Shown in pieces: positions 3,607 through 43,028 of a stretch of 43,028 nt of DNA. The position numbers were made by a program, and so were the translations under genes. The stretch is from sequence record SRR22947727_155; one strand, written 5' to 3'. Positions within the stretch are counted from its first letter, which is position 1; each line of letters begins with the position of its first letter. Under the pieces are notes generated by a model. It was not told the origin of the DNA. It was given only the letters and a program-made list of their open reading frames with translations, and ran no database searches.

Positions 3607-3678
3607 ATTATTAGTAGTTAATAAATTGTATTTTTATTTCCTTAAGTTAAATGATTAAATTTTATAATCTTTATACTA

Positions 3679-19074: not shown

Positions 19075-19386
19075 CTACTCTATTTCTACTTCTTGAATTA
19101 ATTTCATAATTTGATCATTAACCAATCTAGATCCTTCTAAAGAGAGATGATCATCATCATAATAAAATATATGTTTATTATCATGTGTTATGCATCTTCC
19201 GATAATACTATTACAAAAAATTTTATGTGGATAGACTCTATAAATATTTGCATTATTGATAGAATTTAGTAGCTCAAAACTTGTTTTAGTTTTTTCTTTA
19301 TAAACATTATATAAGGTTATAAATTTCTCCACTTCAAGTTTTTTGGGGTAACCTTCAATTTCTGAGCGGTACCTGATTGCTGACAT
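19075..19386 (-). pseudogene. Internally deleted OafA-like AT3-SGNH O-acyltransferase remnant
   Basis: N-terminus MSAIRYRSEIEG resembles the AT3 start motif YRxEIDG(LR); it runs straight into an SGNH C-terminal tail (FC...RC...FYYDDDHLS, DxxH); no TM segments; only 103 aa. Confidence 0.75.
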
Positions 19387-19445: not shown

Positions 19446-20135
19446 TTAAACTTTATCAACTAAACTTTTGGCAATTTTTAAATCATCTAAAGTATCAATA
19501 TCTACAGATCTCCATTTTTCCATCTCAACAAAACCACACTTTTTACCTATTCTTCCTTTTTTAAATAAAAGATCTTTTTTCATTACATATATCGACTTGT
19601 TTTCAGCCCACTGATTCCATATTTCTTTCTGCCTTGGCATACGATTATTAGGATCATAATTTGTAGGAACTACTTGTTTTTTATTTTTAATTTTCCATAA
19701 ATATCTAGTATCGTGATATAGCGAAAGAACCGAGTCGAAACCTTTATTTTTTACCATATCAATTGCTTTATCCAATGATTTTACATCTCTAAGTGGTGAC
19801 GTGGGATACAATAAAACCACAATGTCTACTTTTTTATTATATTTTTTTTCGTATTTTTGAACTGTCCATTTCAATAATAAGTCTACCTCTTGTAAAATTT
19901 TATCATGAGAGTATTTTTTTGGTCTATTCATTGTCTTTACACCATAACCATTAGCAACTTCCCTTATTTTTTTATCGTCGCTATTTAAAACATAATCATC
20001 AAGATATTTAGATTTCTTTGCAACATTTATTGTGTAATAAATAAGTGGCTTATTATTTAATTTAATTATATTTTTCTTTGGTATACCTTTTGAACCACCT
20101 CTAGCTGGTGAAATTCCAAGAACAAATTTTTTCAT
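19446..20135 (-). CDS. Acylneuraminate (ulosonate) cytidylyltransferase, NeuA-like
   Basis: PARGGSKGIPKKN, KPLI, PTSPLR, PRQ, SVDIDTLDD. Confidence 0.92.
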   Translation of the reverse strand: MKKFVLGISPARGGSKGIPKKNIIKLNNKPLIYYTINVAKKSKYLDDYVLNSDDKKIREVANGYGVKTMNRPKKYSHDKILQEVDLLLKWTVQKYEKKYNKKVDIVVLLYPTSPLRDVKSLDKAIDMVKNKGFDSVLSLYHDTRYLWKIKNKKQVVPTNYDPNNRMPRQKEIWNQWAENKSIYVMKKDLLFKKGRIGKKCGFVEMEKWRSVDIDTLDDLKIAKSLVDKV

Positions 20136-20992
20136 ATTAGATTTGGGTACACTAATTTATAATTTTCTTCCATAAAATTATTTAAAATATCTTCTTCAAT
20201 TTTATTATAGTAAGTATTATTAAAATTGATCGTTGGACTTATAAATTTATTGTATTTATTTAATGAAAAAAAATTAGAAATATCACAATTAACACCACTG
20301 CCATCAAGTCCAATATTTTCAATTACAGAAAATGGTGGATAAACAGAATATTTTTTTTTTATAAAATGGGTTATGATCCAGTCTATACTCCATATGTTTT
20401 TATTAAAATTCTTGTCCATAGTTTTAGACAATAAAATTTTTATATCTTTTGGATAAACTTCATAATGATTTTTTTTTGATTTAATATCTTTTAAGATTTT
20501 GTGGTAATCTAGCCATTCTTCTTTCCAGGTTGCCCATCCCCAAGGGAAAAACCTTTTTAAAATAAATGGGCTATTATTTTTATATATATCACGATAATTA
20601 CCTATTCTATAACCACAAATACTTTTAATATCGTTTTCATCTTTAAAGTAATTAAGACTATTCTTAAAAAAATTAAAACCATTTTTTTTTAAAACACAAT
20701 CATCTTCCAAAACTATTATGGCATCAGCTTTTTTATTAAAAGTATAATCTATAGATTTTACCATATTTGATGCTAAACCAATATTCTTATTTCGTATAAC
20801 AATACTACTTATAATTTCTTTATAAGATTTTAATATTCTTGAAATTTTTTTTTGTTTGAAAATATCTTTTTTATTTTTAGCGCCATCTAAAAAAACCAAT
20901 ATTCCATTTACATTATTTTTTTTTAAACTTTCAAGAACCTTTATTGTATGTCTCGGCCTATTATATAAAAGCAAGATAACTTTAATCTTCAT
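20132..20992 (-). CDS. GT-A fold glycosyltransferase (GT2-like, WGWATW type)
   Basis: YNRPRHT, FLDG, NIGLA, IVLEDD, WGWATW, NIGLDGSG. Confidence 0.88.
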   Translation of the reverse strand: MKIKVILLLYNRPRHTIKVLESLKKNNVNGILVFLDGAKNKKDIFKQKKISRILKSYKEIISSIVIRNKNIGLASNMVKSIDYTFNKKADAIIVLEDDCVLKKNGFNFFKNSLNYFKDENDIKSICGYRIGNYRDIYKNNSPFILKRFFPWGWATWKEEWLDYHKILKDIKSKKNHYEVYPKDIKILLSKTMDKNFNKNIWSIDWIITHFIKKKYSVYPPFSVIENIGLDGSGVNCDISNFFSLNKYNKFISPTINFNNTYYNKIEEDILNNFMEENYKLVYPNLI

Positions 20993-22200
20993 TTAAAACT
21001 TAGAATTAATAATTTGTTCTCATATTGTTTTCTTTTTATTATTTTATCGATCATACTATCGATACCTTTAACTTTTATTGCATTTTTGAGAAATAATTCA
21101 GCAATAAATCTTCCTTTGCTTCTTCTAATTAATTCTATTGTTTCTTTTCTGTTTCTTTGGTTACCCACACCTCTGGACATCATAACAGTTAATCCAGATT
21201 TTTGTATTGTCATTTCATCAAGCAAAATCATATTTGATGCAAATCCAAATGGAATTACAAATGAATTTTCTTTGAGTATTTTGTTATTGGACCAAAGTGG
21301 TGAAGTATTTGAAGATGAGCAGTCCATCAACAATCCTAAATTTTTATTATTAAAAAATTTATTAAGTTTTTTTGATATTTTGTCAATTGTATCACTTATT
21401 AAATCGGCAAAGTCATAACTTGGTATTTTTTTATTCAATTCATTTGATATTTTTTTATTTATAACAAAATAATCAATTTCTGAATTAATAGTTTTTTTTA
21501 GGTTTTCAATTTTTTTTAAATCATTATCAACTAAAAATATTTTATTATCTGGAGATGAATTTGAGAATAAATAGGCAGCTAAACTTCCACTTTGTCCCGC
21601 ACCAAATAAAACCATTCTATTATTTTTATAGAGCTCAGGAATTCTAGTAAGTGCATTTCTTACGTCAGCCAATAAAAAACTATACATAAATGGCATCAAT
21701 TCTTTATTGCTAGGTTTTTCTTTTTTTTTAAAACAAATTTCATAACTGAATTTTGGAAGTATTGTATATTCGGAAAAAGTTCCGTCATAAGAATCTTTTC
21801 CATGTCCAATTATTTTTCCTTGTCCATACTGACACTCTGTATATCGATGTAATACTTTACAAGAATAGCAATCGTAGTTATCGCAGGGATAATGACCGAA
21901 AACTGCAACATAATCACCGATGTCAACGTCATCAACAGACACATGTTTATCTATGATTTTTGAAACACCTCCATTACCAAAGACAAAATGATTTTTATTC
22001 AAAAATTCTTGTATTCTAGGATGTGCTGGTTTTTCAGAAGATGAAAGCCAGAAACTTCCATGAACTGGTACAAATAAATTTTTTACTAAAATTTCTCCAT
22101 TTTTAAGTTTTTTTAACCTTTTTCTTTCCTTTATGGTTATAACTTTTCTTTTTAAATTATTTTCCCACTTACAAACTATTTGATTAGTAATTTTAGGCAT
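20989..22200 (-). CDS. Divergent medium-chain dehydrogenase/reductase (Zn-ADH fold)
   Basis: GEILVK, GDYVAV, structural Zn cluster CDNYDCYSC...EC, DGTFSEY, Rossmann motif FGAGQSG. Confidence 0.82.
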   Translation of the reverse strand: MPKITNQIVCKWENNLKRKVITIKERKRLKKLKNGEILVKNLFVPVHGSFWLSSSEKPAHPRIQEFLNKNHFVFGNGGVSKIIDKHVSVDDVDIGDYVAVFGHYPCDNYDCYSCKVLHRYTECQYGQGKIIGHGKDSYDGTFSEYTILPKFSYEICFKKKEKPSNKELMPFMYSFLLADVRNALTRIPELYKNNRMVLFGAGQSGSLAAYLFSNSSPDNKIFLVDNDLKKIENLKKTINSEIDYFVINKKISNELNKKIPSYDFADLISDTIDKISKKLNKFFNNKNLGLLMDCSSSNTSPLWSNNKILKENSFVIPFGFASNMILLDEMTIQKSGLTVMMSRGVGNQRNRKETIELIRRSKGRFIAELFLKNAIKVKGIDSMIDKIIKRKQYENKLLILSFK

Positions 22201-23221
22201 AAAATTTTTTTGCAGCTTCTAGCTCTTTTAAAAAACTATTAGATAAAGGTATTCCAGTTTTTGATCTTTTTTCAAAAATTTCGTTTTCTTTTTGCCCAGG
22301 ATACTTTGGCTCATCCAGCTTTTTATTTATTTTTTTTGAGTGAGTAATATTTTTTATTGTTTTGTTTATATTTTTTTTAAAATTTTTAAGATTACATATT
22401 TTATTTAAATTTATTACTATAAAACTTTGTGATAAATATCTTTTATTTTTTATATTATCTCCATACATAGATGTTACATCACTTGTCATATTCATATTTG
22501 ATAGAGCGCCAGTTAAAATATCGACAAATAATGATAAGCCTGTTCCTTTAAAATCACCAATTGGCATTAGATATTCAGCTTTTTTAGGATCAGTGGTCAT
22601 TTTGAAAAAACTATTTAAAGCTACATTAGGTGGTAATTTTTTTCCTTTTTTATTTAAATATCTAATTTTATTAAAACTAATTGATGTAATACAACTATCA
22701 TAAGCAAAATTTATTTTTTTATTTATTGGGCAAACTAAACTCAATGGATTGTTTCCATAAAATACTTTCCTAGTATTTTTTAACATTACTCTTGGGGTTG
22801 CTTGTGTCATTCCAATGATTAAATATCCGTCTTTTACACTGTCAAAACCAAAATATGACATCGCACCACAATGGCCTGAGTTATAAATATTTGCCATGGC
22901 AATTCCAGTCTTATTAGATAAATTTATCAAATATTTGACAGCTTTATTGCAAGCATGGTGACCCATTGTATGGTCAGCATCTATACTTACAAAATTATTC
23001 AATATTTTTTTATATTTTATTTTTGGTTTTAAATTAGTTCTACCAGAAATAATTTCTCTTAAATATTGTGGAAAAAGGTTTAAACCATGCGAATCGATTC
23101 CTCTTAATGAAGACCAAACTAAACCATCAATAGTATCTTCTAATATTTTTACGTTTATTTTATGAAATCTTAAAGTCTCAAAAATAATTTTATGTATGTC
23201 GTTTTTTTTAATTAAGATCAT
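22193..23221 (-). CDS. Ldh_2 family 2-hydroxyacid oxidoreductase (AllD/ComC/YiaK-like)
   Basis: LRGIDSHG, DADHTMG, NSGHCGA, GNNPLS, PIGDFKGTGL, YPGQKE, GIPL. Confidence 0.9.
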   Translation of the reverse strand: MILIKKNDIHKIIFETLRFHKINVKILEDTIDGLVWSSLRGIDSHGLNLFPQYLREIISGRTNLKPKIKYKKILNNFVSIDADHTMGHHACNKAVKYLINLSNKTGIAMANIYNSGHCGAMSYFGFDSVKDGYLIIGMTQATPRVMLKNTRKVFYGNNPLSLVCPINKKINFAYDSCITSISFNKIRYLNKKGKKLPPNVALNSFFKMTTDPKKAEYLMPIGDFKGTGLSLFVDILTGALSNMNMTSDVTSMYGDNIKNKRYLSQSFIVINLNKICNLKNFKKNINKTIKNITHSKKINKKLDEPKYPGQKENEIFEKRSKTGIPLSNSFLKELEAAKKFYA

Positions 23222-24302
23222 AAGAATTTTCTAACTTACTTAAAAATTTTTTTTGATCAAGTTTTAATATTTTTGTAAATTTTTTATCACCTTTTACGAG
23301 GTTGGAAGCATTATATAAAAATTTTACAAAATTAAATTGAGAAAGTGGATCGTGTTGAAAGATAATACTTAAAAATTTTGATTTCTGATCTAAATTATGT
23401 TTTTCATAATTTTTAACTCTTTTTGGGTTTACTAAAAAATCATTATCAAAAATTTTAATCCTCTTAGGGTTGCAAACTAAAATTTCAAACAAAATATATG
23501 GTAACATATTTGAGATACCTATCATCATATACCTATCAATATTTATACTTTTATAAACATTATCAAAATTAAATCTTTTAAAAAACTTTACATAACCATC
23601 AGTTTTAAAAATAACAGCTTTGGCTTTTTTTATAAATTCTAAATTTTTTAGTTTAATAATTTCTTCAGTTTTTGTTCCATTTAAATATATTATATCTATT
23701 TTTTTACCCTTAGATATATTTGATAAATTTGATTGATCAATTTGATTAATTCTAACAACAATATCATATTTATCTATTTCTGCTGCGTTTTTATCTTTGC
23801 TCAAAGCTGGACCAACAATTGCTACATTTTTATTGAAAAAGAAATTTTTTAGACACTCGTCAACAGAAGTTTTTTCTTTAATACTATAATAAAGTTTATT
23901 TTGAAGTTCTAGATTGTTATTTTCAGTAATATTTGAATAGTCTATTTTTTTATTTTTATTTAATTTTAAATAAAATTTTCTTAGAAAAAAACTATCAACA
24001 AGCCAGCCCTTAAAGATGAAAAACTTATAATAAAACAAGATTTTTTTATCATCTTTTATGCTTAATTTTTTAAGTAGTTTGTCAATTGAATTATTTTTTT
24101 TATTAATCTTGTCAAATATAAATTCGTTGATTTTTACATCATAAATTTTATTGAATTTTGTCAAATTTTTTTTTAATTCTTTTTTGCTTTTTGCAAAACA
24201 TATAAAATTATTTAAATCCTTACATTCTTTTTCAAATTGTCTTGTGTTTTTATTGGTAAGTTTTCTAAATATAGATTTAATATATTGTTTTAAATGATAC
24301 AT
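23208..24302 (-). CDS. GT29-like (sialyltransferase sialylmotif-L) protein
   Basis: KNVAIVGPALSKDKNAAEIDKYDIVVRIN...GKKIDIIYLN resembles sialylmotif L (CAVVGN...G.EID..D.V.R.N...G.KT); late QHD. Confidence 0.65.
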   Translation of the reverse strand: MYHLKQYIKSIFRKLTNKNTRQFEKECKDLNNFICFAKSKKELKKNLTKFNKIYDVKINEFIFDKINKKNNSIDKLLKKLSIKDDKKILFYYKFFIFKGWLVDSFFLRKFYLKLNKNKKIDYSNITENNNLELQNKLYYSIKEKTSVDECLKNFFFNKNVAIVGPALSKDKNAAEIDKYDIVVRINQIDQSNLSNISKGKKIDIIYLNGTKTEEIIKLKNLEFIKKAKAVIFKTDGYVKFFKRFNFDNVYKSINIDRYMMIGISNMLPYILFEILVCNPKRIKIFDNDFLVNPKRVKNYEKHNLDQKSKFLSIIFQHDPLSQFNFVKFLYNASNLVKGDKKFTKILKLDQKKFLSKLENSYDLN

Positions 24303-24384: not shown

Positions 24385-25587
24385 CTATTTTAATAAATTC
24401 TCTAATTCATCTTGATCATTCTGAAATTTATTTTTCCAATTATTTAAACCAGAATTCACAGATTTTAAATGATAATCTATATTGTTTTGATCTATTTTCT
24501 TCCCAAGTGGCTTCTTAAAATGAAATTTTTTTTGATCATGATTATGAATTAAACTAATAATTATATCTCCAAATTCTGCTTTAAAATGAGAATCCCACCA
24601 CCATGTCATCTCTTTGTCTTTGTCATTTAAGCTAGGGACTTGTTCCATTGTAATATCATTTAAAAGTGCAAAATCCCAAATATCAAATTTGTTTTTTTTG
24701 TATTTTTTTGAGACTTTATCATTACTAGATATCAATCCCTTCTTCCAATGTTCATATTTTTGCCAATTATTTGATATTGAAATTGTGCTTAAATGTCTTG
24801 CATGCATTGGTTGTATAACAATCGTTAAATCTATATCACTTTCATAACTTTTGCTTAATAGTTTTTCAAATATATTCCATGAATTTATATTTTTGTTAAA
24901 AAAAGAGTAATCTTTATAAAATTTATTTATTAAATTTTTTTCTTTTTTTAAAAAAATTTTTTTGTGTCCTCCTTCCAACAATATTCTATCTTTCATATGA
25001 TTTCTTTCTCTCATACCGTTTTTTAAGTATTTGTAATGAATAGAATTTTGTAATTTTATAGTTTCATAACTACCCTTTAAAGCATGCCAAGATGATAATA
25101 GAGCAAGCTTGTTGCCAGCAGTATGTTGTTGATTACCATTAAAACTAATAGATAGCATGCGTTCATCAAAATCAACTTTATTTGGTAAATTAGCATTGAA
25201 CATATAAAAATCTAAAAACAATAATACTTTTTTTTGTTTTCTAATATTTTGAGCATGTTGAAAATATCTGTAAACTTCATACAGATTTGGACCTGGTAAA
25301 CCTAGGTTATAAATATTTCTCTTATCTAGATATTTATGTTCAGGATCAAAACCAAATTCTGCTTTTGAACTACCTAAGATTATAGCATCTGGTTTTTGAT
25401 CTTTTATTGCAAAAGCTTTGGTCATTCTTATATTTTTTTCAAAAGCAGGTTTTTCTTTATTAAAATTATTTATTCTAGGTTGTTCATAAAATCCGAAAGG
25501 ATCGATTAATCTATTAATAGCGATAACTAATGTCATCAAAAATAAAAATAGTGTGATAATTATAAAAAAGTATTTCTTGTTTATCAT
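24385..25587 (-). CDS. Membrane-anchored SGNH-like acyltransferase (DltD/AlgJ-like)
   Basis: N-terminal TM followed by IDPFG; block I IILGSS; YNLGLPG; C-terminal WDSH (DxH); directly downstream of the MBOAT. Confidence 0.65.
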   Translation of the reverse strand: MINKKYFFIIITLFLFLMTLVIAINRLIDPFGFYEQPRINNFNKEKPAFEKNIRMTKAFAIKDQKPDAIILGSSKAEFGFDPEHKYLDKRNIYNLGLPGPNLYEVYRYFQHAQNIRKQKKVLLFLDFYMFNANLPNKVDFDERMLSISFNGNQQHTAGNKLALLSSWHALKGSYETIKLQNSIHYKYLKNGMRERNHMKDRILLEGGHKKIFLKKEKNLINKFYKDYSFFNKNINSWNIFEKLLSKSYESDIDLTIVIQPMHARHLSTISISNNWQKYEHWKKGLISSNDKVSKKYKKNKFDIWDFALLNDITMEQVPSLNDKDKEMTWWWDSHFKAEFGDIIISLIHNHDQKKFHFKKPLGKKIDQNNIDYHLKSVNSGLNNWKNKFQNDQDELENLLK

Positions 25588-25591
25588 TTTT

Positions 25592-27184
25592 TTAAAACTG
25601 GAAATAAATAAATTCAGATATATTGCTCAGATTCATTACTGAAAAAGTAAATAAGATACAAATTAAAATAGACCAAAAAATATTTGGTTTCCAAGAAACT
25701 TTGAAGAATTCAAATTTTTTCTCATTATCATCCTCAAGAGATGGAAAGTATTCATGAAATAAACTTTTTGTATTTGGTGCTAATATGCAAAAAAGATATA
25801 AAAAAAAAATAATTAATAACTGATTGAAGCCAAAAAAAAATGGTAAAGTGTCATATTTGATAAAACTATTGTTTGTAAAATTTGGTCCAAATATAGATTG
25901 AAGTAAAATAAACCAACTATCAGGGACAACAATATTGCTGATGTTAAACATGGCATTGTAGATTATTATCGCAGAATCATAGTTGGTGGCTCTAAAAAAG
26001 ACAATAGAAATTGCGTAAGCTAAAAAAACAATAAAACAACTTAAAAAATAACTACTTAAAGAATATTTTTTATATAAATTTTTAATAAAATTACCTTGCA
26101 ATCTTTTCCATATGATATTTACAATTATATAAAATGCATGAATGGCACCAAAAAATAAAAAATTTACACCAGAACCATGCCAAATGCCTATCAAAAGATA
26201 AGTAATTAAAGAAGGAATTATTATTGTAAGGGTAAAATTCGTAACAAAATCTCTTTTTTTTCTTAATGAAAATCTTGTAAAAAATAAGGACAAAGGATAA
26301 TAAACATAATCCCTAAAAAAAATACCAAGTGTTATGTGCCATCTGCGCCAGAACTCTGCAATATTTCTTGATTTAAAAGGGGAGTCAAAATTAAGTGGAA
26401 GCTTAATACCAAACATATACCCCAATCCTATTGCCATATCTGAATAACCAGAAAAATCGAAATATATTTGAAGACTGTAGCATAAAACGCCCGACCAAGC
26501 TTCCAGAAAAGATATACTCATTGATTGTTCAGCCGCAAAAAAAACTGGACTTGAATAAAAGGATAAATTATCAGCAATAATTACTTTTTTAAATAACCCA
26601 ATTACAAAGATTGAGAATCCAATAAGCAAGTATTGTGTTTTTTTCTCTATGAAGTTGATATTTCTAAACTGATAAAGAACTTGAGAATGATGAACAATAG
26701 GTCCTGCAATTAATTGAGGGAAGAAAGTTATAAAGATAACAAAATCTTTTAAACTTAAATTGTCAATTTTTTTATTATAAAGATCAACAAGAAAAGTTAT
26801 TTGTTGAAAAGTATAGAATGATATTCCTAAAGGTAAAATTATATTTTTTGATATTAGTTCAAGATTTGATGAAAAAGAAATTATATCAACAAAGAAATTA
26901 TAATATTTAAAATATCCTAATAAAAATAGATTTAATAAAATTCCAAAAATTAAAAAAATTTTTTTTTGGAAAGAACGGATTAATATAGCAAAAAAATAAT
27001 TAGAAGTTAGAGAAAATAATATTAAAATGAGATAAATTGGTGTCCACCAACTATAAAAAAACAATGAGCAAACTATAAGCCAAAAAATAGCAAATTTATT
27101 ATTAGAAAATTTGTGTATTAAGTAATAACCTAACCAAGTAATTGGTAAAAATAAAAGTATAAATTGATAAGAATTAAATAACAT
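25592..27184 (-). CDS. MBOAT family O-acyltransferase (AlgI/DltB/PatA-like) with C-terminal FIYFQF motif
   Basis: MLFNS, LPLGISFYTFQ, FFPQLIAGPI, QIYFDFSGYSDMAIG, EFWRRWHITL, GIWHG (catalytic His), ends SEFIYFQF. Confidence 0.96.
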   Translation of the reverse strand: MLFNSYQFILLFLPITWLGYYLIHKFSNNKFAIFWLIVCSLFFYSWWTPIYLILILFSLTSNYFFAILIRSFQKKIFLIFGILLNLFLLGYFKYYNFFVDIISFSSNLELISKNIILPLGISFYTFQQITFLVDLYNKKIDNLSLKDFVIFITFFPQLIAGPIVHHSQVLYQFRNINFIEKKTQYLLIGFSIFVIGLFKKVIIADNLSFYSSPVFFAAEQSMSISFLEAWSGVLCYSLQIYFDFSGYSDMAIGLGYMFGIKLPLNFDSPFKSRNIAEFWRRWHITLGIFFRDYVYYPLSLFFTRFSLRKKRDFVTNFTLTIIIPSLITYLLIGIWHGSGVNFLFFGAIHAFYIIVNIIWKRLQGNFIKNLYKKYSLSSYFLSCFIVFLAYAISIVFFRATNYDSAIIIYNAMFNISNIVVPDSWFILLQSIFGPNFTNNSFIKYDTLPFFFGFNQLLIIFFLYLFCILAPNTKSLFHEYFPSLEDDNEKKFEFFKVSWKPNIFWSILICILFTFSVMNLSNISEFIYFQF

Positions 27185-27190
27185 CTTAAA

Positions 27191-29080
27191 TTATTTTGAA
27201 GATATAACTAGATCAAAATTTAATTTTGTGTTTAGATCTAAAGTCCACTCACTATTTGATTCTTTATCTTCATTTTGCATTATGAACCCTAGCTTTTTAT
27301 AATGATCTTTCACAATTCCATTCTTCTTAGTACTTAAATAAGTACCTTTTAATTTTTTTATTTTTTTTGAAATTGCAATCTCAGCAATGTGATTAAGACA
27401 AAATTCTTCAACTTTTCTACCTAACACTCTACAACTCATTATCCAGGTGTCAATTTCCCAAATATCTTTTACTTTTTTACAAATAATCAAGCTAATCAAG
27501 CCATTATCTCCAAAAATATCCTCCAACCTTATTTGAAATGTGAAATAATCGTCATTATTAATAATGTTCTTTATATCGTTCATTTTGTATCTTCTAGTGG
27601 TCAGATTGAACTGATTTGAACGTAAGATTAGTTGAGCAATTCTATTCAAATCTTTTTCTTGAAATTCTTTTAACTCGGCTTTCATTTTTAGTGTTTTTAA
27701 ATAACTTCCAATATCTTTACTGATACTTAATAAATTTGAACGTTTAATATTTGCATTGTAACTATCCACTCTTTTAGTGTCTTCCTCAGAAAAAACTATA
27801 GATTCAAAATAACCACCTGCTAATAAAGTTCTTACATATGTGGATGGGTCATCTGTTAGTTCTGGAACAGCAACTTCTGGTAAGTGTTGTCTAACAATAT
27901 CTCTTTCCATTGGATTATCATCAAGAAAAACAAATGAGTCTAATGATAGGTTTAAAGAATGCGAAATCTCAGTAATATTACTTGGTTTATCTTTCCAGTT
28001 TGCTTTGAATACAGTTATGTGCTCTTCTTTGAGTATCATGCTTTTATGCTTTAAGAAAACCTCTTTTGCTATTTTTTCCTCATTTTTTGAGCATACTGCA
28101 ATTACAACACCCCTTTCTCGCAATTTCAAAATCATTTTTTGTATATCTAAAAATATTTCTCCCAACTTGTCATTTGCCCCTAATTTTATTCCATCTAAGC
28201 CATCATCTCCAATAACACCTCCCCAGAGTGTATTATCTAGGTCAACAACTAAAACTTTTTTTGTCTTACCTGAAATTGCCGCTATAATTCTAGACAAATT
28301 CTCAGCATAAAAAGGCACATAGTCTAATGAAAAAGGAAATTTAGCATGATAATACATTGTTTGATCATGCCAACTATCAGTTCCCACAATCTCTGAAAGT
28401 GCAGATATGTCAAAGATGTAATCACTTGAGTTTTTTACATTTGTAAAAAGCTTCATATTAAATTCATTTACAAAACTTCTGTCTGTACCATTTATATTAC
28501 TCTCTATATTTCCAAAATATTGTTCAGGATTTTGAGGAAGAGTCTGAAAAATACATGGAACATTATATTTGTTATTTAATTTTTCTTTGATTTTTTTTAG
28601 ATAATCAATCGAATCATTTGCATGATTATTTTCATCTATAAAATTATTATTAAGCCTTAATAAAGAAAATCCCTCAATATCTATTGCAAGAAGAATTAGG
28701 TCTAATTTTTTTTTCTTGAAAGGATCTATGTCACTTAATGCGATTTGTGTTAATTGGTTGTAAGGAGCCTCATGAATATCTATCATTAATCCATAACGAA
28801 GACCAGCTATAACTATGTCAGGTATCAGATGAGACGATGTATGATTTGATATAATCCCTAATGAAATTTTTTTTAAACTATTAAAATCTTTTTCAAAAAA
28901 TTTAATTTTTTTTAATCTATTATAAATTTTATTAGTATTTGAAATATTTGGTCTATGTTTTGCAAATTTCAATAACTCTTCAATTTTAACATCTTTAGAA
29001 AAAATTTTTTTGATTTCATCATCAAAACTAGATGAAAACTTTGGATACCATTCAAGATTCTGAAATAGATTAGAACTCAT
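27191..29080 (-). CDS. FkbH-like HAD-IIIC glyceryl transferase/phosphatase with C-terminal GNAT-like domain
   Basis: KVLVVDLDNTLWGGVIGDDG, CSKN, ANWKDK, FLDDNPMER, RSNQFNLTTRRY, MSCRVLGR. Confidence 0.95.
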   Translation of the reverse strand: MSSNLFQNLEWYPKFSSSFDDEIKKIFSKDVKIEELLKFAKHRPNISNTNKIYNRLKKIKFFEKDFNSLKKISLGIISNHTSSHLIPDIVIAGLRYGLMIDIHEAPYNQLTQIALSDIDPFKKKKLDLILLAIDIEGFSLLRLNNNFIDENNHANDSIDYLKKIKEKLNNKYNVPCIFQTLPQNPEQYFGNIESNINGTDRSFVNEFNMKLFTNVKNSSDYIFDISALSEIVGTDSWHDQTMYYHAKFPFSLDYVPFYAENLSRIIAAISGKTKKVLVVDLDNTLWGGVIGDDGLDGIKLGANDKLGEIFLDIQKMILKLRERGVVIAVCSKNEEKIAKEVFLKHKSMILKEEHITVFKANWKDKPSNITEISHSLNLSLDSFVFLDDNPMERDIVRQHLPEVAVPELTDDPSTYVRTLLAGGYFESIVFSEEDTKRVDSYNANIKRSNLLSISKDIGSYLKTLKMKAELKEFQEKDLNRIAQLILRSNQFNLTTRRYKMNDIKNIINNDDYFTFQIRLEDIFGDNGLISLIICKKVKDIWEIDTWIMSCRVLGRKVEEFCLNHIAEIAISKKIKKLKGTYLSTKKNGIVKDHYKKLGFIMQNEDKESNSEWTLDLNTKLNFDLVISSK

Positions 29081-29214
29081 AGAGATATTATTTTTAATTA
29101 TTTTATTATAAATTGTAAATGACTAATTTTATTTAATTGAATTACTCAATCTTAATATTTTTTAAGACTCCTTTTAATTTTTTTTTTGATAATAAAAAAA
29201 TTGCATAAATTTTT

Positions 29215-29652
29215 TTATATTTTTAAAGTAGTTACTATAGTATTTGCTTTTCCTCTAGCCTTTAAGATGTTATCTTTCACTGAAAATATTTTTATAATTA
29301 ATTCGACAGATGATGTTGACTCTGAAATATGAGTAACTTCAGAGACAATTTTAGCTTCTTCATTAACATATAGTGGTTTTAAAAATGACAAATTTAAATT
29401 GGTACATAGCGAATGACCACCAGGTAGTTTCATTCCAAGCATTTTTGAAGTTTTTGCAAAAAGTAACCCACCATATACAATTATATCTTTGTAGCCTCGT
29501 GAAATTGCAAAAGAACTATCAACGTGTAAAGGGCTTGAGTCTCCAGAAATTTTTTCAAAATCTAACATCATCTGTTTGGTAATTTTAAAATAGAAATTGT
29601 CAGTGGAGCCAATCTTAATATCCTTGATTGATAAAATTTTTGGAATATCCAT
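29215..29652 (-). CDS. MaoC/PhaJ-like hotdog-fold (de)hydratase
   Basis: FEKISGDSSPLHVD (D-x4-H hydratase dyad), IVYGGL, GMKLPG, FLKPLY. Confidence 0.92.
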   Translation of the reverse strand: MDIPKILSIKDIKIGSTDNFYFKITKQMMLDFEKISGDSSPLHVDSSFAISRGYKDIIVYGGLLFAKTSKMLGMKLPGGHSLCTNLNLSFLKPLYVNEEAKIVSEVTHISESTSSVELIIKIFSVKDNILKARGKANTIVTTLKI

Positions 29653-29692
29653 AATTAAATTTTTGTACTCTAAGCTTTCAAAATAAAATAAA

Positions 29693-29938
29693 TTAGTTTT
29701 TAATTTTCTTAAGAATTAGATTATGAAATTCTTTTACATTATTTAACGAATTAATCTCATTTGCAGAAAATTTGATTCCAAAATCTTTTTCATGGGACGC
29801 AACAAGGCGAATATGAGAAAGACTATCCCATTGTTCTATATCATCAGCTGTTGTCTCTGGGCTGATGGTAATATCATTATCATCAAAAACATCTCTAAAA
29901 ATCAAATTAGATTTTTTTAAAATATCTTTTAAATCCAT
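29693..29938 (-). CDS. Acyl carrier protein
   Basis: 81 aa, acidic, WDSLSHI phosphopantetheine site, EKDFGIKF. Confidence 0.95.
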   Translation of the reverse strand: MDLKDILKKSNLIFRDVFDDNDITISPETTADDIEQWDSLSHIRLVASHEKDFGIKFSANEINSLNNVKEFHNLILKKIKN

Positions 29939-31918: not shown

Positions 31919-33688
31919 ATGAAATATCATCTTATTACTTCTAATGCAAAAATTAGTAATAAAAATAGGATTTTTTTAGGAGACTGGTGTGGAGAGGTAA
32001 AAAATAAAAACAAAAATAACAAATCTAATATTGTAAAAGTTAACTTAGGTAGAGATGAAAACGAGAGGAAAAAAATAGAAAAAAAAATCTTGATATATGA
32101 AAAAAAAATATTTCCTCAACTTTATAAATTATTAAATAATCTCCATAATACTCATAATAGTAAACAATATTATTCATTCATAATTGGTAAGTGGTTAAGA
32201 AGATATCTTGCAGTAATGCTAAACAGATATTTAACTCTTAGTGAATATTTAAGATGTAATAAAAATAAAATTCAAGACATTTGGTTTGAAACATATAATG
32301 TGCTTTCGCCACCTTTAGATAGTTTTTCAGCTATAGAGTTTTTTGATGACCCAAAAATAAATGATTGGATATATATTCAGACTTTAAAATCAGTAAATTC
32401 TAATTTTAAAATTAAAATTAAACACATAAGACAAATTAAATCAAAAAGAAAATATAATATTGGTAAAAAGAATGTCTTTAAAATAATTTTAAATAAAGTG
32501 AACACAATTATCCAAAAATATTTTTCATATTCAGATAAAACATTTTTTATTGGGACATTTATGCCACTTTATAAAGAAGCAATATTAAATTTATATTTTT
32601 TTCAATTACCTAAAATATGGAAAAAAAATAAAATAAATTATTCTGAGAAAGCTGATTTGGACTTAAGAATAAAGCTCAAAAACTTATTGGTATCAAATTT
32701 TTTGAAACAAAAGGATAAAAATAAAAACGGAGAGTTTAAATTTTTAATTGAAAATTTATTCCACATGATGCCTACCTCCTATATTGAAAATTTTTTGAAT
32801 ATAAAAGACTCTATTTCAAAAAGTTATTGGCCAGAAAAGCCAAATTTAATTTTCACCTCAAATAATTTTGATACAGACGAAGGATTTAAAATTTACCTGG
32901 CTGAACAAAAAGAGAATAATCCGAATTTAAAATACATTATTGGTCAGCATGGTATAGGATACAATATTAGAAACACAAAAACGCATTACCAAGAAAGAGA
33001 AATTGCAGATAAGATTTTTGTATGGGGTAAATACACAGAAAATAAAAATCAAATACCTGGTTTTATATTAAAATCATCAAAGATTGATTATGATAAAAAT
33101 GGAAAAATTTTAATAGTTTGTACACACCTTGGTCACCAGGTTGAATATTGGGATAAAAATTATTTTTTTTCTAAAAATTTCAATAGAAAAATTACCTTTC
33201 TTGCAGCATTCAAGAAAAAATTTTTATACGAAAATATGATAATAAGATTGGGAATAAATTTTGAAAGATATCATTTTAATGAAAAAATAAAAACTAAAAA
33301 AAAATTTCCAAAAATATATATCGATGAAAATAAGAACATAAATAAATCGTATGCTGTTTCAAGACTGGTAGTTCATTTTTATTTTGCAACAACTTTCTTA
33401 GAAACAATTTCAAAAAATATACCTTCAGTAATGCTACTAGATATTGAAGAGTTTAGTTATAATAAAAAAGCAATTTCTATTTTTAAAATTTTAGAAAAGA
33501 ATAGCATTTTATTTTACGATGCAAAAAAAATGCAAGAATTTGTTGAAAAAAATTATAATAATTTAGAAAAGTGGTGGTATTCAAAAAAAACTCAAAAAGC
33601 CCTAAATTTATTTAGAAGTAATTACTGTAGAAATGGTTCATTAAGAAAATTTAGGGATATGATAAAAAAAACTAATTATATTTCTTAG
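31919..33688 (+). CDS. LIC12162-family putative surface carbohydrate transferase
   Basis: FLGDWC near the N-terminus, LNNLHN, IGKWL, MPTSYIE, GQHG, TTFLET, EKWW; motifs recalled from this family. Confidence 0.75.
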   Translation: MKYHLITSNAKISNKNRIFLGDWCGEVKNKNKNNKSNIVKVNLGRDENERKKIEKKILIYEKKIFPQLYKLLNNLHNTHNSKQYYSFIIGKWLRRYLAVMLNRYLTLSEYLRCNKNKIQDIWFETYNVLSPPLDSFSAIEFFDDPKINDWIYIQTLKSVNSNFKIKIKHIRQIKSKRKYNIGKKNVFKIILNKVNTIIQKYFSYSDKTFFIGTFMPLYKEAILNLYFFQLPKIWKKNKINYSEKADLDLRIKLKNLLVSNFLKQKDKNKNGEFKFLIENLFHMMPTSYIENFLNIKDSISKSYWPEKPNLIFTSNNFDTDEGFKIYLAEQKENNPNLKYIIGQHGIGYNIRNTKTHYQEREIADKIFVWGKYTENKNQIPGFILKSSKIDYDKNGKILIVCTHLGHQVEYWDKNYFFSKNFNRKITFLAAFKKKFLYENMIIRLGINFERYHFNEKIKTKKKFPKIYIDENKNINKSYAVSRLVVHFYFATTFLETISKNIPSVMLLDIEEFSYNKKAISIFKILEKNSILFYDAKKMQEFVEKNYNNLEKWWYSKKTQKALNLFRSNYCRNGSLRKFRDMIKKTNYIS

Positions 33689-33755: not shown

Positions 33756-34802
33756 ATGTTAAAAAAAATTTCAAAATATAAAAAATATATTGACGGAAAA
33801 ACATTCTTTGTTACTGGAGGGACTGGTTCGTTTGGTAAAAAATTTATCTATACTTTACTTAAAGAGTACAACCCTAAGAAAATCATTATTTTTAGTCGAG
33901 ATGAATTAAAACAATATAATTTACAAAATGATCCTTTTTTCAAAAAGTACGAAAAAAAACTAAGATATTTTATTGGAGATATAAGAGATAGAGAACGTTT
34001 AGATTTTGCTCTATCAAATAACTATGTAGATATTCTTGTGCACTCTGCTGCATTAAAACAAGTGGTTGCTGCTGAATATAATCCATTTGAAACAATAAAA
34101 ACAAATATAATTGGAGCACAAAACATTATTGAGAGCTCGCTAAAATATAAAGTTAAAAAAGTACTAGCTTTAAGTACTGACAAAGCCGCAGCACCTATTA
34201 ATCTATATGGAGCAACAAAGCTAGCATCTGATAAAATATTTGTTTCGAGTAACAATTTTAGCAAAAAAAACTCATTGTTTTCTGTTGTGAGATATGGAAA
34301 TGTTTTTGGAAGTAGAGGTTCAGTAATATTCAATTTTTTAAAAAATAAGAATTTAATTCCGATAACTGATAAAAGAATGACAAGATTTTCTATCACACTT
34401 CAACAAGGTGTTAACTTTGTTATCAAATCTTTATCTGAAATGTGGGGTGGTGAAATATTTATTCCAAAGATTCCATCTTATAATATCTTGGATTTAGCAA
34501 AAGCAGTAAATCCAAAAGCAAAACTAATATTCTCAGGTATTCGTTCAGGAGAAAAAATTCATGAAGAAATGTTGACAAAATCAGATTCATATAACTCAAT
34601 TGAAAATGATGATCACTATGTGATTTTACCATCTTTTGATTATTTGAGTTGGGATAAGAAGAGTTATATAAAAAAGAAGAAACTGAACTACAGAGAATGT
34701 AAACTACACAGTTATAGTAGTGATAATAATAAGGATTTTATGAAAATTAATGATCTAAAAAAATTGGTAAAAAAAATTAAAATAGATGAAAAACTTGGGT
34801 GA
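33756..34802 (+). CDS. pseB: UDP-N-acetylglucosamine 4,6-dehydratase (inverting)
   Basis: TGGTGSFG, FSRDELKQ, HSAALKQV, AEYNPFE, LSTDKA, NLYGATK, VRYGNVFGSRGSV, GEKIHE. Confidence 0.95.
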   Translation: MLKKISKYKKYIDGKTFFVTGGTGSFGKKFIYTLLKEYNPKKIIIFSRDELKQYNLQNDPFFKKYEKKLRYFIGDIRDRERLDFALSNNYVDILVHSAALKQVVAAEYNPFETIKTNIIGAQNIIESSLKYKVKKVLALSTDKAAAPINLYGATKLASDKIFVSSNNFSKKNSLFSVVRYGNVFGSRGSVIFNFLKNKNLIPITDKRMTRFSITLQQGVNFVIKSLSEMWGGEIFIPKIPSYNILDLAKAVNPKAKLIFSGIRSGEKIHEEMLTKSDSYNSIENDDHYVILPSFDYLSWDKKSYIKKKKLNYRECKLHSYSSDNNKDFMKINDLKKLVKKIKIDEKLG

Positions 34803-36051
34803 TCCCTATAAACTTGCCAAAATTTTATTTCCAATTAATAGAAGCTTGACAGGTAAAGGAAACTATAAAACTTTAAAAATATTAAAAAAAATAAATAATT
34901 TAATAAAAATAAAATCATTTAAGGTTGGAGAAAAAGTTTTCGATTGGAAAATACCTCCTGTTTGGAACACATCATATGCATATTTAAAAAAAATTAATGG
35001 AGAAGTGATTTGTGATTTTAAAAAAAATAATCTTCATCTTTTAGGTTATAGTATTTCAATAGACAAAAAATTTAAATTTAAAGAGTTATCTAAAAACTTA
35101 TTTTTTATAAAAAAATATCCACAAGCAATTCCATATGTGACAAGCTATTACAAAAAAAATTGGGGTTTTTGCTTAAGTTATAATCAATATAAAAAAATGG
35201 ATAGAAAATCAAAATATCATGCAGTTATAAAAACAGATTTTAATTACAAAGGTAACATGAATTACGGTGAAGCTTTAATTAAAGGAAAAGACAAAAGAGA
35301 AATTGTTCTCTCTAGTTATATATGTCACCCATCTATGGCCAATAATGAGACCTCTGGAATAGTTGTTCTGAGCTTTTTACTGAAATGGTTAAATTCTTTT
35401 AAAAAATTGAAATATAGCTATAGATTTTTGTTCATACCAGAAACTATTGGTTCTATAGCATATGTAAACAAACATTATAAAAAATTAAAAAAGAATATTT
35501 TAACAGGTATTGTAATAACATGTGTCGGCGACAATGGACCATTTTCTTTATTAAAATCTAAATATAACAATGCACCTGGAGACAAAATTATTGAAAGACA
35601 TTTGAGAAAAAAAAAAATTCATTCAAAGATTTATAATTGGTCAGACCGTGGAAGTGACGAAAGACAATTCTGCTCTCCTAATGTCGATCTTCCGTTTTCA
35701 AGCTTTATGCGATCCAAATATGGCGAATACAAACAGTATCATACTTCAGAAGACAATATGAATTTTATCTCAAAAAAAGGACTTCAAGATAGTATTCTGT
35801 TTCTTCAAAAAATTATTTTAAATTTAGAAAATTCTAATTTTTGGAGATCTAGATTTATGTGTGAGCCAATGTTATCAAAAAGAAAATTATATCCTACGAT
35901 AAGCAAAGCTTCTAACAACAATAATGACTTATTGGATATACTTACATGGTGTGATGGAAAAAATTCAGAGGAAGACATATCTGAAATTACAAAAATAAAA
36001 GGATTGAAATCTAAAATCGCTGTTTTAAAAAAAAACAAACTTATTTACTAA
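34786..36051 (+). CDS. DUF4910 aminopeptidase-like polysaccharide biosynthesis protein
   Basis: FPINRSLTG, FDWKIP, IPYVTSYY, WGFC, CHPSMANNE, PETIGSI, GSDERQF, YHTS, EPMLSKRKLY. Confidence 0.9.
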   Translation: MKNLGDPYKLAKILFPINRSLTGKGNYKTLKILKKINNLIKIKSFKVGEKVFDWKIPPVWNTSYAYLKKINGEVICDFKKNNLHLLGYSISIDKKFKFKELSKNLFFIKKYPQAIPYVTSYYKKNWGFCLSYNQYKKMDRKSKYHAVIKTDFNYKGNMNYGEALIKGKDKREIVLSSYICHPSMANNETSGIVVLSFLLKWLNSFKKLKYSYRFLFIPETIGSIAYVNKHYKKLKKNILTGIVITCVGDNGPFSLLKSKYNNAPGDKIIERHLRKKKIHSKIYNWSDRGSDERQFCSPNVDLPFSSFMRSKYGEYKQYHTSEDNMNFISKKGLQDSILFLQKIILNLENSNFWRSRFMCEPMLSKRKLYPTISKASNNNNDLLDILTWCDGKNSEEDISEITKIKGLKSKIAVLKKNKLIY

Positions 36052-37007
36052 CTAAATCTGTCATAAAAAAAATATTTATGATTAACTAATTTGTAAAACT
36101 CTACAACACTGTTGTGCCTTGATACTTCTTTGAAGGTAAGTTCATAATTGTATTTTTTCATAAATTTTTTAAAATAATGTTCCAAGACTGCAGCTTCATC
36201 TTCATCAATCCTTTTAGACCACTTACCAATATTTATTTTTGAAATTTTTTTCAATTTTAATTGATTAAAATTATTTCCATAAGTTTCTGATCCCATCAAG
36301 GTTGGAACGATTAAGTCATTCGAATAACTAATTTTTAAAAATTTACATATTTTTTTCATTTCTTTTTTTGGTGAAGCTATTAAATCTTCAAAACGGCATA
36401 CGTAGTAGTCTTTTCCAATGATTTTTTTATTAATTTCAATTGCTTCTAAGCCATTTAAGTATCTAAATATGATTGAAAATAATATAGACAGCTTGTCATC
36501 GTTAAATTTACTATAATATTTCTTTAAGCCCGATTTAATGGCAGAGTAATTATCTCTAGGATCTCTAATCAGATGAATAAATTTAGCATTTTTGAACCAT
36601 TTCTTTATTTCAGTTGCATAAATTTCTACACTTGTTTCTTTACATATAATTGATTTGGTTTCTTTAGTTGTAAATTTCTGATTATAGATATTTAACAAAT
36701 TATAAATTAAATTTTTGGTATCATAGTTTTTTTTTATTTTGTCAAAAAAAATCTTTTGATATTTTTCTAAGTTAATTCTTTTTTTTATTATTTCATTTTT
36801 TGCAAATTCTTTGAATAAAATATTTTCTAATCTTTTTTTTTTTTTTGACTTATTTAACTTTCTTTCAACAATTGGAAAATAAGCGTATAGTAAATTTAAA
36901 TCAGTCGGAAACACATTTATTTCTGAATTATTGTCAAATAAATTAAGAAACATTGATGTGCCTGATTTTCTATGACCACATAAAAAAATTGGATTAAAAT
37001 CTTTCAT
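36048..37007 (-). CDS. PAPS-dependent sulfotransferase family protein
   Basis: 5'-PSB loop GHRKSGTS; 3'-PB IRDPRDNYSA; RFEDL; IGKW. Confidence 0.88.
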   Translation of the reverse strand: MKDFNPIFLCGHRKSGTSMFLNLFDNNSEINVFPTDLNLLYAYFPIVERKLNKSKKKKRLENILFKEFAKNEIIKKRINLEKYQKIFFDKIKKNYDTKNLIYNLLNIYNQKFTTKETKSIICKETSVEIYATEIKKWFKNAKFIHLIRDPRDNYSAIKSGLKKYYSKFNDDKLSILFSIIFRYLNGLEAIEINKKIIGKDYYVCRFEDLIASPKKEMKKICKFLKISYSNDLIVPTLMGSETYGNNFNQLKLKKISKINIGKWSKRIDEDEAAVLEHYFKKFMKKYNYELTFKEVSRHNSVVEFYKLVNHKYFFYDRFS

Positions 37008-37029
37008 TTTTTTAAAAATTAATAATTAA

Positions 37030-38202: not shown

Positions 38203-38204
38203 GT

Positions 38205-40363: not shown

Positions 40364-40364
40364 T

Positions 40365-41084: not shown

Positions 41085-41144
41085 AGAAACTTCAAAATAA
41101 TTAAAATTTAGATAATATTTGACGTTGTTTTTTTTAATTTTTTT

Positions 41145-41366
41145 CTATTTGCCCAGTTTTGATAATAATTGAGATATTTTTTTATCATCATAATTTATTT
41201 TCTTCATAATTTTTTTTGCAGATGTTGGGTCCAGTCTAAATGCCAATTTTAGTATATTCATCCAATTAACATTATTTCTAGAACGAACTTTTTGAATGGC
41301 ATCAATAATTTTTACATATCTATTCTTATTGTATAAATCTTTTTTTTTTATAATTTTTTTTTTCAT
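41145..41366 (-). CDS. Small hypothetical helical protein
   Basis: 73 aa ATG ORF filling the gap at the head of the minus-strand operon; IIDAIQKVRSRNNVNWMNILKLAF. Confidence 0.7.
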   Translation of the reverse strand: MKKKIIKKKDLYNKNRYVKIIDAIQKVRSRNNVNWMNILKLAFRLDPTSAKKIMKKINYDDKKISQLLSKLGK

Positions 41367-41400
41367 TAGTATATAATATCATAATTACATATAATTTTTC
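41367..41400. promoter_or_regulatory. Candidate compact bidirectional promoter (leaderless -10 boxes)
   Basis: TATAAT at 41390-41395, 5 nt before the pseI ATG; minus-strand TATTAT at 41378-41373, 6 nt before ATG 41366; no SD sequence. Confidence 0.4.
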
Positions 41401-42998: not shown

Positions 42999-43028
42999 TA
43001 TAATATAAATTTTTTTCAGTGCATAAAT

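Follow-up and report, generated by a model that had tools for sequence, protein, structure and literature searches.

A mobile gene cassette that may supply surface polysaccharides with CMP-activated 2-keto sugar acids without a PEP-condensing synthase

To our knowledge, all characterised sugars activated with cytidine monophosphate (CMP), namely sialic, legionaminic and pseudaminic acids, 2-keto-3-deoxynononic acid (Kdn) and 3-deoxy-D-manno-octulosonic acid (Kdo), acquire their keto-acid head by an aldol-type condensation of phosphoenolpyruvate (PEP). In the known pathways, PseG or NeuC liberates the free precursor from a nucleotide sugar, and in Kdo8N biosynthesis a dehydrogenase (KdnA/KdnB) tailors the free ulosonate ahead of activation. 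The capsule of Klebsiella K38 contains 3-deoxy-L-glycero-pentulosonic acid. The DNA described here, a 43,028-nucleotide stretch of sequence record SRR22947727_155 (the window), is a 43-kb polysaccharide-biosynthesis locus of approximately 25% G+C, in which five overlapping genes at 19446-24302 encode a NeuA-type cytidylyltransferase, a sialyltransferase-fold transferase, two dehydrogenase-like proteins and a second transferase-like protein. On the basis of comparative genomics and predicted structures, the chances are about evenly balanced that a cassette of four of these genes, together with the GT29-like transferase, makes an acidic 2-keto sugar, activates it with CMP and puts it on a surface polysaccharide without a PEP-condensing synthase.

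A preliminary sequence-only reading had described the array of five overlapping genes, which matches the list of open reading frames (ORFs) exactly, all on the minus strand. In order of transcription, they encode a GT29/GT42-like sialyltransferase-fold transferase recognised by its homologues and predicted structure (P0001, 23208-24302, 364 aa), an Ldh_2-family NAD(P)-dependent 2-hydroxy/2-oxo acid dehydrogenase (P0002, 22193-23221, 342 aa, PF02615), an atypical medium-chain dehydrogenase/reductase (MDR)-fold protein with a borderline ADH_N match (P0003, 20989-22200, 403 aa), a GT-A-fold nucleotide-sugar transferase-like protein classed as GT2/GNT-I-like by Atlas (P0004 or GTA, 20132-20992, 286 aa) and a NeuA-type cytidylyltransferase (P0005 or CTP3a, 19446-20135, 229 aa, PF02348). 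The overlaps measure 14 nt (P0001/P0002), 8 nt (P0002/P0003), 4 nt (P0003/P0004) and 4 nt (P0004/P0005). As first claimed, neither the ORF list nor a domain search revealed NeuB, KdsA or NeuC inside the five-gene span, with the qualification that a NeuB gene is located elsewhere in the window (41401-42435, plus strand, 247.7 bits), 17 kb from the cassette and accompanied by a second CTP_transf_3 gene (40365-41084, minus strand). BLASTP detected no significant similarity between the two cytidylyltransferases; therefore, the cassette and the NeuB module are separate modules. Among named relatives, the one nearest to this region is a Pelagibacteraceae metagenome-assembled genome (MAG; locus L001) that has much of the gene order in common with the window, at identities of 55% (MDR) and 70% (cytidylyltransferase). 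No RNA run is listed among the sequencing runs that contain the sequence, and the best DNA run contains 0.44 of its words.

Short gene overlaps are by themselves ordinary in operons; the recurrence of four of the five genes in unrelated phyla is beyond chance. The MDR family (115 relatives of about 405 aa) was used as the anchor of a synteny census. A genome scan with the single MDR protein gave 119 pattern matches and no confirmed relatives, and scans of contigs with a 22-member alignment (A1) succeeded, yielding 19 loci in genome contigs and 35 in metagenome contigs, or 54 MDR-anchored loci that dereplicate to 38 clusters at ≥90% MDR identity. ORFs in these loci were called by a simple script, and families were assigned by jackhmmer from the window proteins. 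According to their record titles, the loci belong to Alpha- and Gammaproteobacteria, Bacteroidota, Spirochaetota, Elusimicrobiota, Verrucomicrobiota, Desulfobacterota, Planctomycetota, Acidobacteriota and Saccharibacteria. The conserved unit is one of four genes (Ldh_2, MDR, GT-A and NeuA-like) that recurs across about ten phyla, and the GT29-like gene is a variable partner. Thus the linkage of NeuA-like, Ldh_2 and atypical MDR genes that had been proposed from the window holds across phyla, and the proposed unit stands for four genes but not for the fifth.

The MDR gene is usually followed by the GT-A gene, and a highly conserved cytidylyltransferase orthologue goes with both: among the 24 dereplicated clusters that contain either Ldh_2 or the dehydratase described below, 20 have a GT-A gene and 22 a CTP_transf_3 gene. 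Three kinds of fusion were found, and MDR is the shared member of all of them: CTP_transf_3 with MDR (P0069, 673 aa, CTP_transf_3 N-terminal), MDR with MR_MLE (P0121, 866 aa, and P0122, 916 aa, MDR N-terminal) and MDR with GT-A (P0275, 737 aa). A variant in a Saccharibacteria MAG (L012) comprises MDR, GT-A and dehydratase genes with a non-orthologous cytidylyltransferase gene nearby. The cassette is mobile. It is carried by the cultured bacteria Mucilaginibacter roseus LMG 28454, Mucilaginibacter sp. UR6-1 and Bernardetia sp. OM2101; in the order to which the Pelagibacteraceae relative belongs, the MDR gene is rare (one of 301 sampled genomes, the relative itself), a frequency that says nothing about function. 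The GT29-like gene (profile A3) adjoins the cassette in the window, in L021 (97% identical to the window), in L037 (two copies) and in L042, and lies 8 kb from it in L001; in other loci, its position is filled by transferases of different types.

The evidence that bears most directly on the chemistry is the exchange of Ldh_2 for another enzyme. In loci that lack Ldh_2, the neighbouring ORF of 428-442 aa encodes an enolase-superfamily protein in all five cases tested (PF13378, 121-180 bits); these MR_MLE proteins belong to the glucarate-dehydratase subgroup, their closest structures being 4it1 (2.8e-96) and E. coli GlucD 1ec7 (1.1e-80). When genes within 6 kb of MDR were counted, the 54 loci divided into 15 with Ldh_2 only, 18 with the dehydratase only, none with both and 21 with neither, and the 38 clusters into 13, 11, none and 14, respectively; in nine of these last 14 clusters, the flanks extend for less than 4 kb. 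On a maximum likelihood tree of 46 MDR sequences, the Ldh_2 and dehydratase states are intermixed, and at least five changes are required (a quick IQ-TREE run with several long branches flagged). Ldh_2 enzymes interconvert 2-hydroxy and 2-oxo acids, and GlucD-type dehydratases form a 2-keto-3-deoxy acid by removing the proton at C2 of a 2-hydroxy acid and eliminating the 3-hydroxyl group. What the alternative enzymes have in common is that a 2-hydroxy sugar acid goes in and a 2-keto acid comes out, which is the kind of substrate that a NeuA-type enzyme needs. Judging from these enzyme families, the mutual exclusivity would fit only the conversion of a 2-hydroxy sugar acid to a 2-keto acid and not the modification of Kdo or nonulosonates, because the latter have no C2 hydrogen.

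When the cytidylyltransferase alignment (A2) was used for a second scan, it found the loci of the first scan again and, in addition, several contexts without MDR. The cytidylyltransferase gene is found with genes for a Maf/MptE-like transferase and Ldh_2 in L065 (Sulfurimonadaceae), with a Capsule_synth-like protein and Ldh_2 in L067, with a Capsule_synth-like protein in L068 (where the contig stops at the cytidylyltransferase), with a 573-aa protein of no family and the dehydratase in L066, and with a 630-aa homologue of the latter protein in L064. From L065, L066 and L067, the minimal pair is therefore the cytidylyltransferase with either Ldh_2 or the dehydratase. The transferases next to these cytidylyltransferases (Maf/MptE-like and Capsule_synth-like) belong to types that are known users of CMP-ulosonates. 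A DAO-type FAD oxidoreductase of about 400 aa is encoded in the Ldh_2-type loci L007, L030, L037 and L042, as well as in L002/L025 (where Ldh_2 is 10 kb away), and in none of the dehydratase-type loci; in L007 and L042, the end of the DAO gene abuts or overlaps the start of Ldh_2. By their family assignments, the DAO-type enzymes and D-2-hydroxyacid dehydrogenases appear to be other 2-hydroxy-acid oxidoreductases in an Ldh_2-like role.

In other loci, the cytidylyltransferase gene has as neighbours ORFs for soluble proteins of 385-630 aa, for which Pfam offered nothing useful at E≤10 and in hhalign comparisons with the GT29-like alignment the probabilities stayed under 1%. Clear relatedness is limited to those of L064 and L066, and the group in L019, L024 and L045 is weakly related to that of L067 (65%). 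With zero or one hydrophobic segment each, they are not Wzx or Wzy.

The cassette is largely independent of the known synthases. NeuB was not routinely linked: it occurs in the fetched flanks of four of the 24 dereplicated clusters, in all four cases alongside a further cytidylyltransferase that is different and scores lower, and it is absent from two of five host genomes, those of Mucilaginibacter sp. UR6-1 (G002, 4.6 Mb) and a 2.1-Mb MAG (G003). In the other three, NeuB is on another contig (G001), about 500 kb from the cassette (G004), or on the same contig inside the fetched flank (G005, L006). KdsA is carried by four of the five host genomes, in which the DAHP_synth_1 genes (of KdsA or DAHP synthase type) are not linked to the cassette, and G001-G004 have a separate CTP_transf_3 gene scoring 149-197 bits, as expected of KdsB; none was found in G005, which is fragmentary. 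In Mucilaginibacter sp. UR6-1, a second NeuA-like gene lies 12 kb from the cassette (G002:C6, L071 6788-13823) in a module that encodes an MptE-like protein, CTP_transf_3, a D-2-hydroxyacid dehydrogenase, a hexapeptide acyltransferase, a GFO/IDH/MocA oxidoreductase, a SIS-domain protein, an IMPase-family protein, a DUF386 (YhcH/YiaL) protein and a second MptE-like protein. This is another pairing of a NeuA-like gene with a 2-hydroxy-acid dehydrogenase gene, in a genome without NeuB. The proposal that redox chemistry takes the place of PEP condensation is thus backed by synteny, by the enzyme swap and by hosts without NeuB, the argument being that both swap enzymes yield 2-keto acids; its basis is comparative genomics.

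The individual proteins are consistent with these roles to different degrees. The cytidylyltransferase P0005 matches CTP_transf_3 (PF02348) at 74.2 bits (cut-off 22.6) and is predicted to be the CMP-ulosonate synthetase of the cassette. Its best NCBIfam match is PseF (TIGR03584) at 116.1 bits, below the 205.7 cut-off, and against KdsB models, for which the cut-offs are 155-255, it reaches 18-46 bits (TIGR00466: 18 vs 155.2). The closest structures are CMP-N-acetylneuraminic acid (Neu5Ac) synthetases, namely 6ifd with the single protein (2.2e-23) and 1qwj with the profile (5.7e-35), and the family profile aligns with 1qwj end to end (positions 8-226), P-loop and acidic motif included. Nineteen orthologues from many phyla have a mean column identity of 64%, with P10-S15, K21, N22, D212 and D214 invariant; the P-loop (PARGGSKG..KN) and D-x-D motif are presumed to have the same catalytic meaning as in known CMP-Neu5Ac synthetases. 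P0002 matches Ldh_2 (PF02615) over residues 6-334 of 342 at 255.2 bits (cut-off 38.8) and is below every equivalog cut-off among the models for AllD, sulfolactate dehydrogenase and 3-dehydro-L-gulonate 2-dehydrogenase (181.6/356, 165.4/496.2, 155.3/500 and 119.3/316). Its best PDB matches are 1v9n (6.8e-36) and AllD (2.9e-35), with YiaK at 7.4e-19, and the motifs G41-x-D43-S44-H45-G46 and N114-S115-x-H117 are at least 90% conserved in 18 orthologues.

The MDR protein P0003 is the most conserved piece of the cassette; its Pfam ADH_N score of 24.3 bits is barely above the 23.5 cut-off. Its AlphaFold2 model (pLDDT 90) and Foldseek support the MDR fold, with GroES-like and Rossmann domains. The top Foldseek matches are TM0436, threonine dehydrogenase, RspB and galactitol-1-phosphate, sorbitol and xylitol dehydrogenases (E 2.8e-20 to 1e-16 and TMt 0.76-0.84 for TM0436 and the threonine, sorbitol and xylitol dehydrogenases). 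In a profile alignment with 1e3j and threonine dehydrogenases, the catalytic zinc ligands, which are taken to be Cys and His-Glu in the reference MDR structures, are replaced by an invariant His47 and by Asn76-Gly77. Invariant in 22 sequences of the family are C106, C111, C114 and C123 of the structural lobe, the columns of which line up with those of threonine dehydrogenase, and G200-x-G202-x-x-G205. Archaeal pathways pair an MDR glucose dehydrogenase with gluconate dehydratase; by analogy, P0003 may supply the sugar acid, or it may act between keto-acid formation and activation.

P0004 has no Pfam match even at E≤10, but its nearest Atlas clusters are GT2/GNT-I (0.98), in which 10-21% of the members carry PF00535 or PF03071. 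Weak matches were obtained to POMGNT1 in the PDB (E 0.4) and to an NCBIfam rhamnosyltransferase model (20.7 vs 200.55 bits). E96-D97-D98 is at least 90% conserved across 26 orthologues, and relatives within longer proteins are fused to GT1, GT2 and methyltransferase domains. P0004 may add a neighbouring sugar, or it may free the precursor from a nucleotide sugar by analogy with PseG and NeuC. P0001 likewise does not match PF00777 or any other Pfam family at E≤10. Among 60 aligned homologues, 13 match PF00777 (best E 6.6e-06) and none matches another glycosyltransferase family; the family has 595 representative relatives. Atlas places P0001 with bacterial GT29 clusters (0.90), and all 13 Foldseek matches of its AlphaFold2 model (pLDDT 88) at E≤0.001 are GT29 or GT42 sialyltransferases, with an MptE-type kinase just below, albeit with low TM-scores (0.3-0.5), as only the C-terminal domain aligns. 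The assignment of a sialyltransferase-type fold to the fifth gene is thus borne out by homologues, Atlas and Foldseek despite the lack of a Pfam match of its own, and P0001 is likely, from its modelled structure, to be a user of a CMP-sugar.

The route that these proteins would form begins with a 2-hydroxy sugar acid (aldonic or aldaric); the MDR protein would assist in making or tailoring this acid, at a point in the order that is uncertain. Ldh_2 would then oxidise the C2 hydroxyl group to a ketone, giving a 2-ulosonate able to close to a hemiketal ring; in sister cassettes, the glucarate-dehydratase-type enzyme would produce a 3-deoxy-2-keto acid instead. The NeuA-type enzyme, by its family membership and conserved motifs, would couple CMP to the anomeric C2 hydroxyl group. 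Transfer of the sugar would fall to an enzyme of sialyltransferase fold (the GT29-like protein in the window) or, in other loci, of Maf or KpsS/C type. The stronger statement that this is a new mobile route, in which a 2-ulosonic or 2-ulosaric acid (hex-, pent- or hept-) is produced from an aldonic or aldaric acid directly by any of several exchangeable enzymes (Ldh_2, a GlucD-type dehydratase or, in some loci, DAO-type or D-2-hydroxyacid dehydrogenases), activated by a dedicated NeuA-type enzyme and passed to sialyltransferase-fold, Maf-type or KpsS/C-type transferases, is a possibility that is somewhat on the doubtful side.

Several observations weigh against such a route. Having no canonical catalytic zinc ligands, the MDR protein may not be a simple dehydrogenase, and the EDD motif of the GT-A protein is of a kind presumed to be typical of users of nucleoside diphosphate sugars rather than CMP-sugars. 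The closest solved relatives of P0002 (malate dehydrogenase, AllD and sulfolactate dehydrogenase) act on C3-C4 acids, and YiaK, which acts on a sugar acid, is more distant (71 vs 127 bits). The NAD-linked oxidation of 2-hydroxy acids is thermodynamically uphill and would need to be pulled forward by CMP activation and closure of the ring. The Ldh_2-type and dehydratase-type cassettes are not told apart by any alignment column in their cytidylyltransferase, MDR or GT-A proteins; for products that differ at C3 this would be surprising, except where these enzymes are blind to C3 or work ahead of the branch. In five clusters with long flanks, MDR is accompanied by neither Ldh_2 nor the dehydratase, and four of these (L014, L016, L017, L018) have no cytidylyltransferase either, so that the occurrence of the MDR family is wider than the cassette pathway. 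Finally, the loci were sampled through conserved peptide patterns, which is a biased procedure, and their ORFs were called by script.

One alternative is that MDR, Ldh_2 or the dehydratase, and GT-A make some other moiety, such as a hydroxy- or keto-acid substituent or a neighbouring sugar, and that the NeuA-like enzyme activates an ordinary ulosonate, e.g. Kdo, for a capsule-type polymer. The small acids used by the closest solved Ldh_2 relatives would suit a substituent, the fusions of GT-A homologues to ordinary GT1, GT2 and methyltransferase domains indicate a family that builds glycans, Capsule_synth-like (KpsC/S-type) genes are beside the cytidylyltransferase in L067 and L068, and a pyruvyl transferase gene is near MDR-only loci. 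However, the fusion of CTP_transf_3 with MDR argues for a single pathway, the cytidylyltransferase is tightly linked to Ldh_2 or the dehydratase even where MDR and GT-A are missing (L065, L066, L067), G001-G004 already possess the separate KdsB-type gene, and the cassette enzyme is far below the scores of KdsB models. This explanation is considered unlikely.

Another alternative, and quite an unlikely one, is that the cassette remodels an existing ulosonate (Kdo or the nonulosonate of the NeuB module) by oxidation and reduction, the NeuA-like enzyme activating the resulting epimer or derivative. The NeuB module of the window is only 17 kb away, KdsA is present in all of the Gram-negative hosts tested that had data (four of five genomes), the MDR family and the pairs of DAO and Ldh_2 could in principle epimerise a carbinol centre, and the lack of type-separating columns would suit one common product. 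Yet Ldh_2 and GlucD act at C2 next to the carboxylate, whereas C2 of Kdo and of nonulosonates is already a ketone that the dehydratase variant cannot use; two of the five host genomes have no NeuB; a nearby NeuB always has its own second cytidylyltransferase; and a cassette variant exists in the Saccharibacteria MAG, from a lineage expected to lack lipopolysaccharide and Kdo. The sequence-only reading had offered epimerisation of an existing ulosonate as an option, which is disfavoured by the need of the dehydratase for a C2 hydrogen and by the hosts without NeuB. It is very improbable that the overlapping genes are unrelated polysaccharide genes packed into a streamlined genome, as short overlaps common in compact low-GC genomes, the single orientation of the surrounding 14-30 kb and the poor conservation of the GT29-like gene with the other four might suggest, since the census contradicts it with four genes recurring in about ten phyla, three kinds of fusion and an exclusive enzyme swap.

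The atypical MDR family has a second genomic context. A separate clade without the cytidylyltransferase (L014, L016, L018, L044, L046, L049, L050) adjoins a conserved 329-aa protein of no known family, for which the PDB gave no relative and hhalign no resemblance to any cassette protein. In L014, genes for a polysaccharide pyruvyl transferase and a Methyltransf_24 protein are beside MDR; both have relatives in L016, and one each in L018 and L044.

In the window, all genes of the whole 14-30 kb stretch are on one strand. Directly upstream of the cassette, a run of five more genes (24385-29938, minus strand) encodes an acyl carrier protein (29693-29938), a MaoC-like dehydratase (29215-29652), an FkbH-domain protein (27191-29080, TIGR01686, 303 bits), a DltB-like MBOAT (25592-27184, 171 bits on the DltB model, below its cut-off) and a 400-aa protein of no family with one hydrophobic segment (24385-25587), all on the minus strand. 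The run looks like a system for carrier-protein-dependent O-acylation of polysaccharide, of the D-alanylation type but loaded with a glyceryl-type unit; relatives of the MBOAT recur in cassette loci L008, L009, L031 and L071. Directly downstream of the cytidylyltransferase, a 103-aa ORF (19075-19386, minus strand) matches only the C-terminal end of PF19040 (profile positions 180-247 of 248), an SGNH domain usually found in fusion with AT3 acyltransferases. This ORF is probably what is left of a truncated O-acetyltransferase gene at the edge of the cassette; in L003 and L068, the cassette has intact Acyl_transf_3 genes at its flanks.

The nonulosonate-type module at 33756-43028, separate from the cassette, encodes a PseB-like dehydratase, a DUF4910/DUF2172 peptidase-like protein, a sulfotransferase, a DegT aminotransferase, a class-III aminotransferase, an aldo-keto reductase, the second CTP_transf_3, NeuB and an incomplete formyltransferase. 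A decorated nonulosonate of an unusual kind is suggested by the presence of the sulfotransferase and the formyltransferase. Between an ABC transporter gene and the PseB-like gene is a gene for a 589-aa protein without a Pfam match (31919-33688, plus strand). Genes for a radical-SAM/SPASM protein, a six-segment membrane protein and a NodU/CmcH-type carbamoyltransferase are at the left end of the window (1737-5442, minus strand).

A record-level search of the literature turned up no paper on a cassette or pathway of this kind, or on Ldh_2 with a cytidylyltransferase in a glycan context. The reference list of PMC10433991 cites an E. coli K3 capsule with a 4-deoxy-2-hexulosonic acid, which is a lead only and establishes no likeness to the cassette. 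CMP-activated ulosonate pathways are already known; what is new is the origin predicted for the keto acid from comparative genomics and modelled structures. If the prediction is correct, it would constitute a second biosynthetic logic for CMP-activated sugars, from a sugar acid by means of a dehydrogenase or dehydratase, and marine bacteria of the SAR11 type, along with about ten further phyla, would carry surface sugars of a new sialic-acid-like class. New acidic sugars would be predicted on abundant marine and soil bacteria; such sugars bear on recognition by phages and grazers in the hypervariable surface-glycan regions of streamlined plankton. Four poorly annotated families would gain functions, including the first for the MDR family with an altered zinc site. 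Cultured carriers exist, and therefore the pathway idea is directly testable.

Compared with the CMP-sialic acid and other CMP-nonulosonate pathways (NeuC-NeuB-NeuA, PseB-I with PseF, and that of legionaminic acid), the cassette is alike in its NeuA-type enzyme, its sialyltransferase-fold transferase and its setting in a surface-polysaccharide locus. It differs in having no NeuB-type synthase, no NeuC/PseG hydrolase, no aminotransferase and no acetyltransferase, in that its keto acid is predicted to come from the action of a dehydrogenase or dehydratase on a sugar acid, and in that the PseF cut-off is not reached. With the CMP-Kdo pathway (KdsD-KdsA-KdsC-KdsB), it would have in common the CMP activation of a free 2-keto-3-deoxy acid sugar, but it contains no aldolase-type synthase, KdsA and KdsB of the hosts are separate and unlinked, and KdsB models score low. 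The combination of an MDR with an enolase-superfamily acid-sugar dehydratase that yields a 2-keto-3-deoxy acid resembles non-phosphorylative sugar pathways (the archaeal branched Entner-Doudoroff pathway, the Weimberg and Dahms pathways, RspA/RspB of E. coli, and D-glucarate utilisation with GlucD). Those pathways serve catabolism, with an aldolase or a second dehydratase as the final enzyme, whereas the keto acid of the cassette is predicted to be activated with CMP and incorporated into a glycan, and the MDR of the cassette is without canonical catalytic zinc ligands. Finally, the Ldh_2 protein resembles AllD, ComC and YiaK/DlgD in its family match, its His45 and His117 motifs and the hydroxy/oxo chemistry expected at C2 next to a carboxylate, but in contrast to AllD, ComC and YiaK, it is below every equivalog cut-off and its context is glycan biosynthesis with a cytidylyltransferase.

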